Assembly: GCA_951406725.2 (NCBI GenBank)
Contig: OX597838.1
Location: 26,040,001-26,104,000, forward strand
Length of the DNA stretch: 64,000 bases
From: Octopus vulgaris
Lineage: Eukaryota
Direction of reading: 5' to 3'
A program made the position numbers and the translations under genes. Below are positions 7,334-54,638 of the stretch, one piece after another. The first letter of the stretch is position 1, and each line of letters starts with the position of its first letter. The notes below the pieces were generated by a model. The model was not told where the DNA came from and did not search any database. It saw nothing but the letters and a program-made list of their open reading frames with translations.

Positions 7334-8005
7334 CACACACACACACACACCTATTGCCATCAATGGGTTTGACAAGAGATTACTGCTTTCCTGGATTGGT
7401 TGAAGAAGCACATCTCACTTATTAAGTTACAAATATTGTGAAGAAGATGATGATGATTGTTGCTAATAGGATGGTTGTGGTAGCTTCTTGATTTCAATTA
7501 GAGTTTACGGAAATAATGTATGAACTTGTGCGATGTTGATCCTTCGAATTTATTTTTAATTGTGATAATGAAACAATGGGATCAGTCCTTACCACCAAAA
7601 TTAATTTATCTTGCAAAAGAACACACACATGTCTACACATAGACACACGTAGATAAACATAGATGAAGTCCCATTTTGGAAGTATGTTAAAGTATTTAGT
7701 AGACGTATGATGGAGAATTATTCAAAATCGTGTTTGCTTCTATGGGAATTGCTTACCTTTAAAGCAAAAAAACAAGACCAACATATACAACAGGTATGTA
7801 TAACATGCTGTTTCACTTGTTTTAGCCACTCATTTTCTGAGAGCTGTAGAGATTGTTGTGCACACACACCCTTTATTTCTGAGTAGAGAGGGGTGTGTGG
7901 ATCGGTGCATATGTCCCTCATGCGTTCCAAAACCGAGTTGTCGATTTTCACATATGGAGTATCAAAAGATTCAGTACTATTTCCACTACTAACTAAACTT
8001 TATTT

Positions 8006-8695
8006 GGATCTTTTCCTTTTGAACGGCAGTTTTCAACACAATTTCTAGTTAATTAAACACTTTTAAACTTCGTATACTGGTAGAATGTGTCAAAATAAAA
8101 CATTTTTTTTTCTTGGCTTTCTTGACAAAATTGTAATTTGTAAGTTTAACATAGTTTAATTTTTCGAATTTTAACCAATTAATTGCCTCTATTGAGCTAA
8201 AATCATTTGCTGCGTCTAAAACTGAGACAACATCCTGTCACTAACTTTAACCCTAACCCTAAATTTTAGCCTTTCGTTTTTTTTTCTTAATTGTTAAATC
8301 AATTTAATTGTTACGCGTGTGTCTAAAATTATTCGGTTTGTTTTTGTTTTGAGTTTTTGCTTTCGTTTTAGCCTTTCGTTTTTTTCTTAATTGTTATCCT
8401 TAAATTAATTTAACAATTAAGAAAAAAAAAAAAACGAAAGACTAAAATTTAGGGTTAGGGTTAGTGACAGGATGTCTGTTTTAGACGCAACAAATGATTT
8501 TAGCTCAATAGAGGGCATAGGATTGATTAAAATTCGAAAAATTAAACTACGTTAAACTTACAAATTACAATTTTCTCAAGAAAACCAAGAGAAAAAAATG
8601 TTTTATTTTGACACATTCTACCAGTATATGAAGTTTAAAAGTGTTTAGTTAATTAGAAATTGTGTTGAAAACTGCCATTCAAAAGGAAAAGATCC
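8006..8695. mobile_element. Foldback MITE with ~280-bp TIRs and 11-bp TSD (Mutator-like)
   Basis: GGATCTTTTCCTTTTGAACGGCAG ... CTGCCATTCAAAAGGAAAAGATCC; AAACTTTATTT duplicated at 7995-8005 and 8696-8706. Confidence 0.9.
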
Positions 8696-8949
8696 AAACT
8701 TTATTTTCATTGACAAATTTGAATTACAAAAATTTAAAATTATAACCTTTTCCGTAAGTTAACTATCGTAAACATTTTATTCGACGACCATAATGGCGTC
8801 ACATTTTCTCTATGAGTGCGTACTTTAAAAGACATCCATTATCACCTTCACTCACTCTATCTCTCTCCCTTTCTCTCTCACACACGTGAGCGCACAGACA
8901 CACAAAATCCCAATTTTGCTCTAACATCACGGCTCTATACAGCTATTGC

Positions 8950-9867
8950 AATATCACTCTTTATGAAAGAGTTCTCCATTTCCACGGTAAAAATAATACT
9001 GCCATTACATTTTTCATGGAACATGGTGGCCTGCCGTATACCCACAATTGTCCGACATGTAATTTTCCATGTATTTTGCGCGAGGAAACGAACATGTGGC
9101 GTTGCCGTAGGATGGTACGACGACGTCGCCAATCCAGAAGGGAGTGTGAATATTCTGAATCTTTATTGAAGAACTCCTTTCTGGAAAAACCCATGTTTCG
9201 CCTTAGAAGATTTTGCTTTTCGTGAATCTATTCCTCAGCACAGCTTGGTAGCACAGATTAATCGAGGAAAATCTCGAATTCTGCCGTAAAACCACTGTAG
9301 ATTGGCAGTCTTTCTGTGCTGAAGTCTGCCAGTTTTGGACAGAAAACCACCAAAATATGATCGGAGGAGATTTGGATTGAAACTGAGATCGATGAAACGG
9401 TTCTGGTCCATCGAAAATATCAACATGGCAGGATAATCAAAACGGTTTGGCTTTTTAGTGGACTTGACGAAGAGAGGGTTTATGGTCCCACTTTTGACCA
9501 AATGTGGCGAGGGCAACAGACGAATGCTGACACCCTCATTCCTATCATTAGACGCTACGTCAGGCCGGGATCAATAATTTATAGTAATTGTTGGCATGTG
9601 TATAGTAACTTGAACAGCATGGGTTATATACACTATCAGGTTAATCGCTCCGAACACTTTGTGGATCCTCATAACCCAGCTGTTCACACTCAGAATATTA
9701 AGCATTTATGGGGAAGCCTGAAAAAGTGCATTGTTTATCTCGGAATGAGACCGAAGTATCTCAAACAGTATGTCGCTAGATTACTTTTTATATGGGCCAT
9801 TTCACCGTCAACTCAGCGACTTGATAAGTATCTTTTGGATGCTGGAAAACTGTATCCATGTTCCTGA
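8950..9867 (+). pseudogene. Merlin/IS1016 (IS1595/ISXO2-like DDE) transposase pseudogene
   Basis: N-terminal CPTC...WRC...C Zn-ribbon; IGG..EIDETVLVHRKYQHGR..WLFSG (9355-9465); ADTLIPIIRRYVRPGSIIYSNCW..Y..L...GYIHYQVN.SEHFVDP...VHTQNIKHLW; frameshifts and stops. Confidence 0.88.
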
Positions 9868-10405: not shown

Positions 10406-10444
<39 letters not shown>

Positions 10445-10650
10445 ATATATATATACTTTATTTAAAGCAGCAGAAAATTCAACAAAACCTGTTACTCTGA
10501 GTTTCACGTTGCCGTTCGGAAAGTTTTTGCAACGAACGGCAACGTGAAACTCAGAGTAACAGGTTTTGTTGAATTTTCTGCTGCTTTAAATAAAGTATAT
10601 ATATATATAGTACAGCTCCCCCCCACCTCAATACTTAAATGACAAAACAC
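10307..10650. mobile_element. Palindromic Penelope-like insertion (same family as 2058-2208)
   Basis: Inverted arms at ~10365-10518 and 10533-10648; tail segment 10307-10364 is the reverse complement of 2148-2208. Confidence 0.7.
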
Positions 10651-11217: not shown

Positions 11218-11446
11218 TAGATAAAGGGAGAGAGAGAGAGAGAACGTAATAACAAGTGAATGAGAATAATGACAAGGATTAAAAAAGCGTAAACATAATT
11301 GAAGATAAAATGAAACAAAAATCAAGCTAAAACATTATGAATTATTGAAAGTGGGTAGAAAAAAACATCACTTAGTGTAGTAGTACTATGCTAGGGTATC
11401 TGTAGAAAGTTGAATGTGATTTCGGAATATAACAAGGAAAAAGTTC

Positions 11447-13390
11447 AGATCTTGTGAATTTTCCGGGGTCCTCTCTCGACCCCCTTGGAAAAGATTTTCC
11501 CCACAAATTTCTTTGTAATCGTAATGTATGTCGTTTGAAAGATATTTCTATAAAATTTCAATGAAAAAAAAAACCCATTTTCCTAAAAGTTACGAGGGAA
11601 AGCTCGTATCTTGTGAATTTTCCGAAGTCCTCTCTCCACCCCCTTGGAAAAGATTTTCCCTACAAATTTCTTTATAATCGTTTGAAAGGTATTTCTACTA
11701 GAAAAGTTCATTGAAAAAAATCCCCATTTTCCTAAAAGTTACGAGGGAAAAGCTCGGATCTTGTGAAATTTTCGAAGCCCTCTCCCCACCCTTCCTGGAA
11801 AAGATTTTCCCCACAAATTTCTTTATAATCGTAATGTCTGCCGTTTGAAAGGTATTTGTACTAGAAGAGTTCATTGAAAAAAATCCCCATTTTCCTAAAA
11901 GTTATGAGGGAAAAGCTCGGATCTTGTGAATTTTGCGAAGTCCTCTCTCCACCCACTTGGAAAAGATTTTCCCCAAAAATTTCTTTGTAATCGTAATGTA
12001 TGTCGTTTGAAAGGTATTTATATAAAATTTCAATGAAAAAAAACCCCCATTTTCCTAAAAGTTACGAGGGAAAAGCTCGTATCTTGTGAATTTTCCGAAG
12101 TCCTCTCTCCACCCCCTTGGAAAAGATTTTCCCCACAAATTTCTTTATAATCGTTTGAAAGGTATTTCTACTAGAAAAGTTCATTGAAAAAAATCCCCAT
12201 TTTCCTAAAAGTTACGAGGGAAAAGCTCGGATCTTGTGAAATTTTCGAAGCCCTCTCCCCACCTTCCCTGGAAAAGATTTTCCCCACAAATTTCTTTATA
12301 ATCGTAATGTCTGCCGTTTGAAAGGTATTTCTATAAAATTTCAATGGAAAAAAAAAAACATTTTCCTAAAAGTTACGAGGGTAAAGCTCGGATCTTGTGA
12401 ATTTTCCGAAGTCCTCTCTCGATCCCCTTGGAAAAGATTTTCCCCACAGAATTCTTTATAATTGTAATGTATGCCGTTTGAAGGGTATTTCTACTAGAAG
12501 AGTTCATTGAAAAAAATCCCCATTTTCCTAAAAGTTACGAGGGAAAAGCTCGGATCTTGTGAATTTTCCGAAGTACTCTCTCGATCCCCTTGGAAAAGAT
12601 TTTCCCCACAAATTTCTTTATAATCGTAATGTATGCCGTTTGAAAGGTATTTCTATAAAATTTCAATGGAAAAAAAAAGCCATTTTCATAAAAGTTACGA
12701 GGGAAAAGCTCGGATCTTGTGAAATTTTCGAAGTCCTCTCTCCACCTCATTGGAAAAGATTTTCCTCACAAATTTCTTTGTAATCGTAATGTATGTCGTT
12801 TGAAAGGTATTTCTATTAGAAAAGTTCATTGAAAAAAATCCCCCATTTTCCTAAAAGTTACGAGGGAAAAGCTCGGATCGTGTAAATTTTTCGAAGCCGT
12901 CTCCCCACCTCCTTGGAAAATATTTTCCTCACAAATTTCTTTATAATCGTAATGTATGCCGTTTGAAAGGTATTTCTATAAAATTTCAATGAAAAAAAAA
13001 ACCATATTCCTAAAAGTTATGAGGGAAAAGCTCGGATCTTGTGAAATTTTCGAAGTCCTCTCTCCACCTCCTTGGAAAAGATTTTCCTCACAAATTTCTT
13101 TATAATCGTAATGTATGCCGTTTGAAAGGTATTTCTATAAAATTTCAATGAAAAAAAAAACCATATTCCTAAAAGTTATGAGGGAAAAGCTCGGATCTTG
13201 TGAAATTTTCGAAGCCGTCTCCCAACCTCCTTGGAAAAGATTTTCCCCACAAATTTCTTTATAATCATAATGTATGCCGTTTGAAAGGTATTTCTATAAA
13301 ATTTCAATGAAAAAAAAAAACCATATTCCTAAAAGTTACGAGGGAAAAGCTCGGATCGTGTGAATTTTCCGAAGTCCTCCCCCCACCCTC
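11447..13390. repeat. Tandem array of about 12 units of 150-163 bp
   Basis: Unit starts (GATCTTGTGAA) near 11448, 11607, 11757, 11920, 12080, 12230, 12391, 12553, 12713, 12876, 13035, 13194, 13354. Confidence 0.95.
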
Positions 13391-13709
13391 CCGTTGCTTT
13401 GCACACATTTTTTTTTCATATTCGTTTCTGACACATTTTTTTAATACCCATTCCAGTATTTTCTTCGGATTTTCATTTCCGGGCGAAGATGTAAAAATTA
13501 CTCTATATGTATGTATTTGTTGTCTGTCTTTGTCTTCTCACCATGTTGACAACCGATGTTGGTGTGTTTACGTTTCTGTTACTTAGTAGTTCAGCAAAAA
13601 GACACTGAGAGAATAAGTACTAGGCTTACAAAGAATAAGTCCTGGGGTCGATTTGTTCGACTAGATGATTGAAACAAGTAAAAGAATAAAAGAATATATA
13701 TATATATAT

Positions 13710-24680: not shown

Positions 24681-25011
24681 TGTAGTAGTAGTTTCTAGCA
24701 TAAGTACAAGGCTAGGAATTTCGAGGTGGGGGAAACGTACCTTATCGATCCCACTACTAGGCCGTCGTTTTATCTGTATTGATCCCAGAAAGATGAAAGA
24801 CAAAGTTTGATGTCGCTGGATTTGAACTCATAATCTAAAAAAGCTGTAATGAACACCGCAAACTGAACGGTGCCTGTTCCATTGCCCTAGTTACACACAT
24901 TAAGAAGGAAAACAACAAAAACATAAATAATTGTAATTTTAATTTAATTATGTGTTTTGCCCTTTGCCTGTCCTAAGCATTTTCATAATTTTGTCCTAAA
25001 CGTCCGCGTTT

Positions 25012-25425
25012 ACATTATTTATATTATTTACATTATTTACATTTGATGGATATTTACCCTTATCTTGTTTGTTGTTAACATAACGTTTCAGCTGATATAC
25101 CCTCCAGCCTTCATCATGTGTCTTGGGGGAAATTTCGAACCTGGGTTCTCATTCCTAAGGTATTTTTCGATGTTCTTGTTGTTGTTATTATTCAGGTCAC
25201 TGCCTGGAATCGAACTCGGAATCTTGGGGTTAGTAGCCCGTGCTCTTAACCACTACGCCATATGCCGTGGGATGAGAACCCAGGTTCGAAATTTCCCCAA
25301 GACACCTGATGAAGGCTGGAGGGTATATCAGCCGAAACGTTGTGTTAACAACAAACAAGATGAGGAGAAATATCCGTCAATTGTAAATAATGTGCATAAT
25401 TCCTCATGTCTTAGTTATAGAACTG
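25012..25425. mobile_element. tRNA-headed, hammerhead-containing SINE-like element inserted as an inverted pair (copy 1)
   Basis: Minus-strand full unit (tRNA head 25266-25194, (AAT/AAC)n, hammerhead 25122-25077) plus a plus-strand 5'-truncated unit with tail. Imperfect 13-bp direct flanks AACGTCCGCGTTT / AACGCCCGTGTTT. Confidence 0.85.
25301..25346 (+). ncRNA. Minimal type-I hammerhead ribozyme, intact core
   Basis: GACAC-CTGATGA-AGGCTG GAGGGTATAT CAGCC-GAAACGTT-GTGTT: helix I GACAC/GUGUU, stem II GGCUG/CAGCC, palindromic AACGUU in place of stem III. Confidence 0.85.
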
Positions 25426-25557
25426 AACGCCCGTGTTTGTTTTCAGATTTTTAGTTTGCTCTTGTTTCATATGTTCTGAGTAATACTAATATAAAGGCTT
25501 TCTTTCATAAATCCCCAATTACTTTGGTGGTTGAAAACAATCTGAGAATGTGAATTA

Positions 25558-35186: not shown

Positions 35187-35361
35187 TACGTTATAAGTGT
35201 ATATTCCAAAAGACGCCATTTGCATGAAAAACAAAAGTTATGTGGTTACGGAGATATTTAATGCTAGGAACATAAAAATACCTAACTGGAAATACATCTG
35301 CACAGTAATTCTGTTATCAGCAAGTACTGTGAAGTTTTAAGTTTTGCTGAGGAGCATTGAT

Positions 35362-35513
35362 TACATTATTTACATTTGACGGATATTTGTTCTCATCTTG
35401 TTTGTTGATAACACAACGTTTCGGCTGATATACCCTCCAGCCTTCAACAGGTGTGTTGGGGTAATTTCTAACCTGGGTTCTCATTCCTAAGGTATTTTTC
35501 GATGTTGTTGTTG

Positions 35514-35594
<81 letters not shown>

Positions 35595-35933
35595 TCACTG
35601 CCTGGAATTGAACTTGGAAACTTGGGGTTAGTAACCCGCGCCATATGCCCGTAGCGTAGTGGTTAAGAACGTGAGCTACTAGCCCCAAGATTCCGAGCTC
35701 GATTCCAGGAAGTGACCTGAATAATAATAATAATAATAACAATAATAATAATAATAATATCGAAAAATATCTTATGAATGAGAACCCAGGTTAGAAAATT
35801 TCCCCAGACACCCGATGAAGGCTGGAGAGTATATCAGCCGAAACGTTGTGTTAACAACAAACAAGATGAGGACAAATATCCATCAAATGTAAATAATGTA
35901 CATAATTCCTCATCTCTTAAATATAGGACTGTA
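35362..35933. mobile_element. tRNA-headed, hammerhead-containing SINE-like element, head-to-head inverted pair (copy 2)
   Basis: Plus unit: tRNA head 35651-35720, (AAT)n, hammerhead 35807-35852, tail to 35933. Minus unit: 35650-35362. TTTGCTGAGGAG is repeated at 35343-35354 and 35934-35945. Confidence 0.85.
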
Positions 35934-36269
35934 TTTGCTGAGGAGGTCTTATAAAACCAAAACACATCCGCAGTTATTTCCCATGTTGGACGAAACAATC
36001 AAAACGATATTAGTTGATGACTAATATCATTTTTCGTTATCGCTCAATTTCAAATTAGCAATTTGATGTAATCTGCACAAAATATGTTTATATTAACTGT
36101 TATAATATATAGTAAATCACTAAGTAACATGCAATAGTATTGGGGATGGAGAAGCTTACCTTAAGATTATCAAGTGGTAATGACTTCCAGATAACACTGA
36201 GGCCATCAAGAACAGCCTTGCTTTCGTGAGAAGAATTTCGACACTCCTCTTAGGATGCGATATTATTCC

Positions 36270-36875
36270 CTATTTCTTTACTACCCACAAGGGGCTAAAC
36301 ACAGAGGGGACAAACAAGGACAGACAAACGGATTAAGTCGATTACATCGACACCAGTGCGTAACTGGTACTTAATTTATCGACCGCGAAAGGACGAAAAG
36401 CAAAGTCGACCGCGGCGGAATTTGAACTCAGAACTTAGCGGCAGACGAAATACCTATTTCTTTACTACTCACAAGGGGCTAAACACAGAGGGAACAAACA
36501 AGGACAGACAGACGGATTAAGTCGATTACATTGACCCCAGTGCGTAACTGGTACTTAATTTATCGACCCCGAAAGGATGAAAGGCAAAGTCGACCTCGGC
36601 GGAATTTGAACTCAGAACTTAGCGGCAGACGAAATACCTATTTCTTTACTACCCACAAGGGGCTAAACACAGAGGCAACAAACAAGGACAGACAGACAGA
36701 CGGATGAAGTCGATTATACCGACCCCAGTGCGTAACTGGTACTTATTTAATCGACCCCGAAAGGGTGAAAGGCGAAGTCGACCTCGGCGGAATTTGAACT
36801 CAGAACGTAACAGCAAACGAAATACCGCTAGGCATTTCGCCCGACGTGCTAACGTTTCTGCCAGCTCGCTGCCTT
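36270..36875 (-). mobile_element. SINE family 3 concatemer: one head plus three ~187-bp bodies
   Basis: Junction GCAGACGAAATACCTATTTCTTTACTAC recurs; single head at 36825-36875. Confidence 0.85.
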
Positions 36876-40989: not shown

Positions 40990-41791
<802 letters not shown>

Positions 41792-48040: not shown

Positions 48041-48143
48041 ATATATAGTGAATCCAAACAAAGAAGAACAAACAAGGAAAAACAACGCGAGGACGTGGTA
48101 CAAATACTGTATTATCAGACGATCAGGAAAGGAAAGAAAGAGG

Positions 48144-48178
48144 ATTTTACGTTTCGAGCAAAGCTCTTCTTCAGAAAT
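48144..48178 (-). ncRNA. Minimal hammerhead ribozyme in PLE-like fragment 48048-48252
   Basis: Minus strand: ATTT-CTGAAGA-A-GAGC TTT GCTC-GAAACGTA-AAAT. Confidence 0.7.
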
Positions 48179-48251
48179 AGAGGAAAGTCCAAAAGAAGGG
48201 AAAACGGAGGAAGAAAATCGCCAACGATACATACGTGGTTACATTTTGAAA

Positions 48252-52650: not shown

Positions 52651-53909
52651 TTGAAGACAAGAAAGAGGAGGAGGAATATGAGGATGAGGATACACACACA
52701 TGCATACATATGTACACGCATATACACACTCATACACATACGTACACAAACACATGCGCACGCATACACATATATACATATAAACATACACAGATGCACT
52801 CATATACATATCCACACACGTGCACACACATACACATACATGTATGGGCGTACATCCACATACACCTATATACACATGCGCACACACACATACATACACA
52901 TTCACACACGCACATACACAGAGGCTTCTGCACAGTTTCCGTCAATCTATTTTCACTCAACAGTTATTAGTCGACTCGAGAGGCTATATAGTAAAAAGAG
53001 ACTTGCTGAAGATGTCACGCTTTGGGACCCATCCGTGACCACCACGGCGTGCTTACGATAGTGTAACTGTGCCGCAATACTTCTACGTGTAGGCGATTGT
53101 TCGATCTGCTAGTCATAACAGCCAAACGTTCCTCAACATGATATCGTATTGTTTTGAAACATTAGAGTACTTTGTAGAACGTGGTAAGGGTTTCTTGGAC
53201 ATCGGCGTATGTATGGCTGAGTGGTTAAGAAGCTTGCTTTGCAACGAAATGGTTTCGGGTTCAGTCCCACTGCGCAGAAAGTTAGCTAATTATTTTCTAT
53301 TGTAACACCGGACCGACCAATAACCCGTGAGAGAATTGGTGGCCCTCGAAGTCGCTGGAAATGGAGATCTCCAGGTCCAAATTCTTGAACGGCTGCTACT
53401 GCTGCTGCACCTGTTGTTATTGTTTTTGTTGGTGTTGCTGTTGTTGTTGTTGTTGTTCTTGTAGCTATTGTTTAGCTCCTTGTCAGTTCTGATATTGTCG
53501 ACTTAACAACAAAAAGAGAACGGTCGGTGGCGTTGAAGTGGACATCACGTCAGGTTTAGTTTTGTCACGTCCCCTTAGATTCCATCAATCAAAACCCTTT
53601 TGAATCAGACCTCGCCTTTCATCCTTTTGGCGATCAATAAAATTGTGTCAGTCAAGTGGTGCAGTCGATCAAATCGATTCCCTACTCCACCCACTCTCCT
53701 TCATCTCCATCGATCTCTGTTATTCAAATCTATGGCCTTTCACCACCAGACTTGAGAAATTCCTGTTTAGCAAATGTTCTTTTGATTATTTTGATTTTCC
53801 GGCTCCTTGCAAGACGCTTTTTTTTTCCAATACGAATCTAGTGTTTTCAATCTGATTGAGTTCAGGAAAGTTTTGTATGACATGTCGTCGCTCCACTGTT
53901 TCTTATGTC

Positions 53910-54520
53910 TTTACTACCCACAAGGGGCCAAACACAGAGGGGACAAGCAAGGACAGACAAACGGATTAAGTCGATTACATCGACCCCAGTGCGTAACTGG
54001 TACTTATTTAATCGACTCCGAAAGGATGAAAGGCAAAGTCGACGTCAGCGGAATTTGAACTCAGAACGTAACGGCAGACGAAATACCTATTTCTTTACTA
54101 CCCACAAGGGGCTAAACACAGAGTGAACAAAGACAGACAGACGGATTAAGTCGATTACATCGACCCCAGTGCGTAACTGGTACTTATTTAATCGACCTCG
54201 AAAGGATGAAAAGCAAAGTCGACCTCGGCGGAATTTGAACTCAGAACGTAGCGGCAGACGAAATGCCTATTTCTTTACTACCCAAAAGGGGCTAAACACA
54301 GAGAGGACAAACAAGGACAGACAAACGGATTAAGTCGATTATATCGACCCCAGTGCGTAACTGGTACTTATTTAATCGACCCCGAAAGGATGAAAGGCAA
54401 AGTCGACCTCGGCGGAATTTGAACTCAGAACGTAACGGCAGACGAAATAGCTATTTCTTTACTACCATGAACACAGAGGAGACAAACAAGGACAGACAAA
54501 CGGATTAAGTCGATTATACA
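53910..54520 (-). mobile_element. SINE family 3 concatemer (about 3.4 bodies, headless)
   Basis: Same unit and junction as 36270-36875. Confidence 0.85.
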
Positions 54521-54638
54521 TGGTTTTGGGTTCATTCACACTGCGTGGCACCTTCGGCAAGTGTCTTCTACTATAGCCTCGGGTCGACCAAAGCCTTGTG
54601 AGTGGATTTGGTAGACAGAAACTGAAAGAAGCCTGTCG

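Follow-up and report, generated by a model that had tools for sequence, protein, structure and literature searches.

Inverted or tandem arms and a one-sided tail are described as features of Penelope-like elements (PLEs) in the accessible parts of PMC8557442. In anole Poseidon, according to the available portion of PMC11167929, the hammerhead falls within the open reading frame (ORF) by overlap at its start, and two internal start sites of the reverse transcriptase (RT) delimit the tail; the same source describes the hammerhead of PAc as needing protein and as dispensable for insertion in vitro. Minimal PLE hammerheads, whose motif type is given in PMC4209133, are reported in the accessible text of that paper to cut weakly, as dimers, in vitro. 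The promoter mapped for D. virilis Penelope is LINE-like and internal (PMC2377424, partial text). Among TRIMp3 elements, the accessible part of PMC10886601 suggests that the promoter originated from insertion of a SINE into the repeat, and argues that the autonomous partners of these elements require Pol II.

The locus considered here lies at positions 25012..25425 of a 64-kb stretch of Octopus vulgaris DNA (hereafter the window). A sequence-only reading had taken it for a Pol III-transcribed, self-cleaving, non-autonomous retroposon that parasitises PLE machinery. With moderate confidence, we interpret the unit as the pLTR of a protein-coding 2.7-kb retrotransposon of Penelope/Poseidon type that carries a tRNA-derived head, the head being a likely Pol III promoter and the element's own RT the likely maker of the short copies. 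Non-coding retroelements with Pol III promoters have been described, namely SINEs and TRIMs; here a tRNA head in the terminal repeat of a coding PLE marks the point at which copies start.

The locus in the window

The unit and its surroundings comprise the following features.

24999..25011, no strand: left copy of the target-site duplication, 13 bp with 2 mismatches relative to the right copy
25012..25151, (-): left arm from the hammerhead region to the tail-less 3' end, with core change C3>A and about 4 copies of a 9-nt unit
25152..25191, (-): linker of the left arm, (AAT)/(AAC), with a short piece that precedes the ORF's ATG
25192..25266, (-): tRNA-derived head, likely Pol III promoter, with A box at 25250-25260 and B box at 25206-25217
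25269..25425, (+): right arm, a 5'-truncated pLTR that corresponds to ORF codons 1-52, with ATG at 25272
25301..25346, (+): minimal type-I hammerhead motif with a predicted cut after 25341, comprising stem I, CUGAUGA, an extra A, stem II and a palindromic AACGUU
25395..25425, (+): Penelope "tail" between two 3'-end sites, on the right arm only
25426..25438, no strand: right copy of the target-site duplication
~35361..35931, no strand: second inverted insertion of the same family, with a one-sided tail and a 12-bp duplication at 35343 and 35934

A sequence check recovered the A box, the B box, the AAT/AAC linker and the right-arm hammerhead where the sequence-only reading had placed them, and the imperfect 13-bp direct repeat that it reported was found on both sides of the arms. 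Taken alone, this repeat has a score of 7, and 8.9% of mismatched flank pairs score as high. The two arms are inverted and align at 91% over 133 nt. The left (-) arm is the sole arm with a head, and its ribozyme core is mutated (C3>A, CAUGAUGA); the right (+) arm starts at 25269, is 5'-truncated and without a head in cis, and carries an intact core together with the 31-nt tail. The proposed inverted pair with a one-sided tail therefore stands as regards the inversion and the tail, but the pair does not consist of two whole units, since the head is present on the left arm only.

In the right arm, CUGAUGA is located at 25306 and GAAACGUU at 25334-25341, stem I is formed by 25301-05 and 25342-46, and stem II is present. 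This hammerhead is one of two matches of a motif scan in the window. ARAGORN and Rfam gave no tRNA or hammerhead call at the locus, and none among the 150 of 288 rows listed, which can be explained by minimal hammerheads and decayed heads falling outside the models. The hammerhead claim thus holds by the motif scan and by the majority core of the family, but is not echoed by Rfam. When compared with 10 distinct tRNA genes, out of 30 fetched from this genome, the head scores above shuffled heads (z 3.3-7.0), with the best scores among these 10 obtained for Arg-TCG, Arg-TCT and Thr-AGT.

Other features of the window include a second, unrelated minimal hammerhead motif (CUGAAGA/CUGACGA...GAAACGU) at ~48140-48185 (-), also found at L080:2599 and probably from another PLE family; long inverted repeats that do not belong to this family at 8003-8698, 10441-10610 and 41249-41421; and tandem arrays with ~160-bp units (11324-13392) and 184-bp units (36129-36796 and 53762-54609). 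A 168-aa open frame at 9361-9867 (+) is presumably related to transposases of IS1595/Merlin type.

The coding element and its copies

The layout of the element is an ORF encoding RT and GIY-YIG, a stop codon, a 30-nt spacer, the tRNA head, (AAT)n, an ATG, the hammerhead, the tail and the rest of the ORF. This element was reached through the upstream flanks of pLTR copies: 3 of 30 loci picked by their body continue upstream into the GIY-YIG C-terminus, and the RT motifs were recovered by stepwise upstream extension from the GIY-YIG region. Conversely, BLAST placed the head ~30 nt past the GIY-YIG stop codon in 28 of 30 GIY-selected loci, the remaining two having a head with an internal deletion in one case and an interruption just before the head in the other. 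In the near-full-length copies L211-L213 and L316, the 5' tail continues directly into the ORF. From the ATG at 25272, the ORF reads through the hammerhead and the tail, and an 847-aa relative opens with the same hammerhead-coded peptide (13/25 identical). The "AT-rich tail" of a separate unit must accordingly be given up, because tail and hammerhead both lie within the first 52 codons of a Penelope ORF. The relationship to PLEs turns out to be closer than had been proposed: a protein-coding PLE itself shares the hammerhead, the tail and the tRNA head, and the comparison with PLE pLTRs yielded the shared 3' end in an element with RT and GIY-YIG, all copies seen being broken. A search for the partner by Pfam GIY-YIG over the genome had led to other PLE families, with no pLTR match in 30 loci; one match among 20 further GIY-YIG loci (L138) was a chance neighbour.

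The RT is of PLE type, with DKG and YVDD motifs in natural copies, all of them broken, and with homologues at 37-69% identity; the RVT_1 match (E 2.7e-6) falls slightly below the curated cut-off. The C-terminal GIY-YIG region is recognisable as VYSIPCSCGRLYKGET...KLKEAAH, and homologues P0189, P0193 and P0216 cover 94-98% of the query and carry PF01541; Pfam gave no GIY-YIG domain score in L311. According to the accessible text of PMC8557442, a Zn-finger linker between RT and EN is the criterion for Neptune/Nematis. Such a linker is absent from L311 and present in an unrelated 781-aa family, and the layout therefore points to Penelope/Poseidon. Judged from these motifs, the element is assignable to the EN+ PLEs, with the Poseidon label resting on domain layout. 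The family looks inactive today: none of 135 scored matches holds an intact ORF, the longest open frame is 569 aa, and the median divergence from column majorities is 5.5% (88 segments). The 781-aa open frame of the Neptune-type family (L081:1245-3587 and 15 more) occurs at 16 of the 150 places listed, which suggests that this family is likely young; its 3' region has only a degenerate hammerhead-like motif.

Relatives outside this genome include proteins 44-69% identical to the ORF (P0121-P0145), many of them on long contigs, for which horizontal transfer is possible. Metagenome relatives with DNA comprise 8 short contigs at 34-42% identity, and no A or B box was seen by eye in 330 nt of 4 of them, a stretch too short to settle the matter. 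The search for relatives elsewhere gave one weak match among prokaryote genomes and none among viral contigs.

The assembly has a size of 2.8 Gb and consists of 227 contigs. Sampling at fixed positions (39 stretches of 10 kb, 390 kb altogether) yielded five loci, which extrapolates to ~36,000 loci genome-wide (12,000-84,000). The head is present in 0 of these 5 loci, which suggests that many copies are probably truncated 3' of the head. It should be noted that most locus samples used here are top-scoring matches and hence non-random. Among 86 sampled loci picked by body, head or ribozyme, the layout is inverted in 49 and not inverted in 37, and tandem arrays occur at a few (L005, L013, L273). 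One tail is present in 40 of the 46 pairs with two definable ends, no tail in 5 and two tails in 1. Direct repeats score at least 8 in 30 of the 46 pairs, compared with 2.6% of 615 mismatched pairs, and target duplications of the family measure 10-13 bp. Two 3'-end sites are used, at body positions 143-153 (39/94 arms) and 173-177 (51/94 arms). The Penelope hallmarks put forward from the single locus are thus general in the sampled family, in which a pLTR with a hammerhead, tandem or inverted arms and a one-sided tail of 30-40 bp recur. Since the copies in the window are inverted and tandem copies occur at few loci, the family was not classed with non-LTR retrozymes, which consist of tandem hammerhead units with circular RNA.

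Several individual loci deserve separate mention. The tail-less 3' end carries between 1 and 4 copies of a 9-nt unit (window 25012-25045 and many other loci), which suggests reiterative, telomerase-like copying at the RT start. L273 (G000:C2 near 2.735 Mb) and L005 are head-less tandem arrays of linker, hammerhead and tail in ~216-bp units with ~10 copies, and constitute a retrozyme-like derivative of the PLE family. At L092:4365-4787 a fragment of the ORF start is fused to the linker at an identical point in each of the two arms, so that the composite was copied into both. At L061:2307-4513 (G000:C1 near 20.0 Mb), tandem ~359-bp units each carry a type-I hammerhead motif, 5 on (+) and 2 on (-), and this array looks like a non-LTR retrozyme.

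Copy starts, putative cleavage and rival readings

Copies of the family stop preferentially at the head. In 56 loci picked by their body alone, the picked arm terminates at the head start in 19 cases, extends beyond it in 4, ends within the head in 10 and is without a head in 23. The stop at tRNA +1 in 19 of 23 head-reaching arms, a fixed 5' end such as tRNA-SINEs have, compares with 5% expected (P ~1e-21), the background of 5' truncation in the ORF being 0.36% per nt (29 copies), or 5% per 14 nt. In 29 loci picked by the head, 3 arms continue upstream. Three 5' pLTRs linked to an ORF start extend as far as the head start; one of them ends there and the other two go on. Independent template jumps have joined ORF sequence to head positions -5 to -7 (L007, L244, L328 and L220/L237), as expected at a physical RNA 5' end. 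As copies mostly stop at tRNA +1, the RNA likely starts there. A and B boxes of Pol III promoters place the RNA 5' end just before tRNA +1. Both boxes are intact in the column majority, and the head shares with tRNA-SINEs its derivation from a tRNA. We infer that the RNA 5' end lies a few nt before tRNA +1, and on balance we consider it likely that the element behaves like a SINE at its 5' end, probably via Pol III. Cleavage by RNase P at +1 is an unlikely source of this end, because the head does not fold as a cloverleaf.

A proposed sequence of events would run as follows. The RNA of the element would start a few nt before tRNA +1. By analogy with anole Poseidon, the two target strands would each be nicked by the RT/GIY-YIG protein, and the RT would prime inside the RNA, at ORF positions ~120 and ~155. 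Where the 5' pLTR is the site of priming, only ~280 nt would be copied back to the RNA start, producing a SINE-like unit; priming on both strands would produce an inverted pair of which one arm has the tail. During the active period of the family, some of the RNA was likely cut by the hammerhead.

The hammerhead combines the core, an extra nucleotide before stem II, a short stem I and a palindromic stem III. In the predicted fold, stems I and II form, but as a monomer the core is itself base-paired. The column majority retains an intact core, whereas only 14 of 86 arms have kept both core motifs, in line with CpG decay. A 3-nt deletion at the predicted cut site is present in 23 of 127 arms and is the most frequent deletion of the pLTR, the next site standing at 5%. 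It arises arm by arm (16/7/2 v 15.2/8.6/1.2 expected); a subfamily origin was rejected, as no variant is tightly linked to the deletion and arms of one locus are discordant. The deletion hints at past cleavage, and may be the product of an RT jump across cleaved RNA via GU microhomology, with slippage in GTTGTGTT as an alternative origin. In addition, 5' truncations cluster between -7 and +9 of the cut in 18 of 59 arms from 14 loci, a range chosen post hoc.

The 5' pile-up might also be explained if the tRNA piece were a passive insert, with cDNA fold-back at a spacer/head hairpin or a Pol II start producing the stops and Pol III playing no part, which we regard as quite unlikely. The 3' end of the spacer is an inverted repeat of the first 10 nt of the head, many junctions show short perfect palindromes, and 12 head-start arms share 7 nt with the spacer, in most cases through a short fold-back palindrome; part of the step could hence stem from fold-back. 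In the single copy that was folded, however, the hairpin is no stronger than shuffles (z -0.9), and in 55 of 72 stopped arms the leader is kept or the spacer matched for only 0-4 nt. As for a Pol II start, a motif in the spacer ~19 nt upstream of the head start, which we take to be Inr-like, is absent from stopped copies, and a stop rate of 83% would cripple copying of the ORF. The same explanation would be consistent with the LINE-like internal promoter of D. virilis Penelope (PMC2377424, partial text) and with the lack of an RNA end pile-up in RNA-seq described below. The inverted arms and direct repeat at the window locus would, taken by themselves, also suit a DNA transposon of MITE type, bounded by terminal inverted repeats, or motifs arising by chance. 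The sequence-only reading had named a predominance of simple MITEs with symmetric ends as an outcome that would speak against it, and this did not occur: symmetric terminal repeats of fixed length were not found, the ends being asymmetric (40 of 46 pairs have a single tail), the layout being other than inverted at 37 of 86 loci, 5' truncation being progressive, and the unit being contiguous with an RT and GIY-YIG ORF. The probability left to the MITE explanation is negligible.

An amended form of the sequence-only view deserves more weight, namely that once the PLE had gained its head, solo pLTRs became a true Pol III SINE mobilised in trans by the PLE protein. We consider this unlikely, and it can coexist with the preferred reading. 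Head-start copies outnumber ORF-linked copies ~5:1 among head-reaching arms, have boxes and duplications, and show slightly lower head divergence (5.6 v 7.8%, p 0.013), a difference compatible with a degree of separate or later spread that top-match selection could also produce; divergence of the body is equal in ORF-linked and head-start copies (5.6 v 5.3%). Two insertions with different layouts (L220/L237) have a common ORF-to-head junction plus private variants, which indicates that a composite copy was re-copied at least once. This junction is common to just 2 of 40 scored matches, and a large sub-lineage with an internal deletion was rejected on that count. When ORF-linked copies were compared with head-start copies (54 v 42 heads, 50 v 24 bodies), these small samples contained no column with a difference at p<0.02, which leaves an independent SINE lineage a conjecture. 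Tails run at least 4 nt into the next bases of the ORF in 14 of 38 arms, to which AT-rich targets may add a few, and 8 of 30 ORF-start-picked loci (a by-eye count) end 229-551 nt into the ORF without a second pLTR, which indicates priming inside ORF-bearing RNA. According to the accessible text of PMC11167929, PAc needs the first 172 nt of its ORF, past priming sites at 111-118; solo copies do not have the ~55-60 nt of RNA beyond the priming sites that anole Poseidon requires. Taken together, these observations make the short copies most simply products of the RNA of the coding element. What stands of the proposed SINE parasitising a PLE is consequently the link to a PLE, while the unit itself is that PLE's own pLTR.

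Along 2,412 nt of majority columns, the sense strand has 12 runs of at least three T and none of four. TTTT occurs in copies at 0.41/kb, against 1.33 from codon shuffles, whereas 8 metagenome relatives (4.39 v 4.41/kb shuffled) and, within this genome, 17 loci of other PLEs (2.75 v 2.97) are close to their shuffles. For the absence of TTTT, P is 0.04 when codon shuffles serve as the null and 0.001 when the control rate does, a weak test because the copies share one master, from which GGGG is likewise absent (0 v 3.0 expected). A sense strand free of TTTT is a weak hint that Pol III may have transcribed the whole element. It is conceivable, though doubtful, that a captured tRNA promoter in the pLTR drove the whole 2.7-kb coding Penelope by Pol III, with TTTT purged, and that the same RNA gave thousands of SINE-like copies.

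Words of the window were found in sequencing runs of five organism labels, of which labels A and B were compared on L154, using three raw RNA-seq runs of one study from 2026 (~6% of each) and one contig set; the species may differ. Among the indexed runs, none listed as containing these words is an RNA run, which carries no weight as evidence. Reads on L154 are mostly 90-95% alike and run in both directions, and at the two 3' ends their flanks are mixed, the pattern expected of copies that sit within other transcripts. In the three runs, no pile-up of molecule starts or ends is listed on L154, and the joints listed include no joint back from the cut site and no circle joint. RNA depth rises 1.5- to 1.8-fold at the head, a step smaller than in genomic samples. 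As strandedness and poly(A) selection are off record, the RNA-seq neither supports nor refutes a Pol III RNA.

Implications and comparison with known systems

The preferred reading, a coding PLE with a tRNA head in its pLTR, shows how SINE-like repeats could emerge with no LINE involved, and may serve as a model for SM-alpha and similar repeats that combine a tRNA with a hammerhead. It also implies that head-bearing PLE copies are open to mis-annotation as SINEs or tRNA pseudogenes. The deletion scar at the cut site may provide a genomic handle on in vivo cleavage by minimal PLE hammerheads. If a Pol III-driven whole element were true, it would represent a direct route from an autonomous element to a SINE.

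A literature search, mostly without subscription papers and without Repbase, Dfam and SINEBase, gave no report of a tRNA-bearing pLTR or of a PLE-derived tRNA-SINE. The main text of PMC13282606, in its accessible part, has no mention of a hammerhead, and its library or supplements may hold the family.

The closest described systems are the Penelope/Poseidon PLEs, represented by PAc of Anolis (PMC11167929) and Penelope of D. virilis (PMC2377424, PMC8557442). As far as the accessible texts describe them, these likewise have one ORF with RT and C-terminal GIY-YIG, a pLTR with a minimal hammerhead, inverted or tandem arms, heavy 5' truncation, an ORF start that overlaps the hammerhead and a tail inside the ORF. 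The octopus element differs from these descriptions by a tRNA-derived head with A and B boxes and (AAT)n in the pLTR, and by the sharp stop of copies at the head. The TRIMp3 elements Cassandra, Helenus and Ajax (PMC10886601, partial text) are likewise retroelements whose terminal repeat contains a Pol III promoter derived from a small RNA. They are non-coding LTR elements with PBS and PPT, whereas the octopus repeat is the pLTR of a coding element; membership in TRIMp3 was rejected because the repeat flanks an RT/GIY-YIG ORF and the arms are inverted.

Schistosoma SM-alpha and Sj-alpha (PMC6765202) likewise have a Pol III promoter followed by a hammerhead in a short repeat unit. In the accessible text they are tandem SINE-like units with no coding partner named, in contrast to the octopus unit, which belongs physically to a PLE and occurs for the most part in inverted or solo form. 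Non-LTR retrozymes of animals and non-autonomous Chlamys such as MRC1 (bioRxiv 10.64898/2026.07.22.740005; PMC8557442) are likewise short non-coding derivatives of PLE ends; the accessible parts of these sources define retrozymes as tandem arrays and describe no tRNA head, and the pLTR of the octopus family also occurs in headless arrays (L005, L273).

Finally, tRNA-SINEs, including octopus OK, OR1 and OR2, likewise have, in the descriptions available, a tRNA head, a fixed 5' end, a high copy number and target duplications. OR1 and OR2 are listed as CORE-SINEs in the accessible parts of PMC4824008 and PMC4758252, whereas the head of the octopus unit runs straight into (AAT)n. The unit could be identical to OK. 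It differs from tRNA-SINEs in its 3' part, which is PLE coding sequence in place of a LINE tail.
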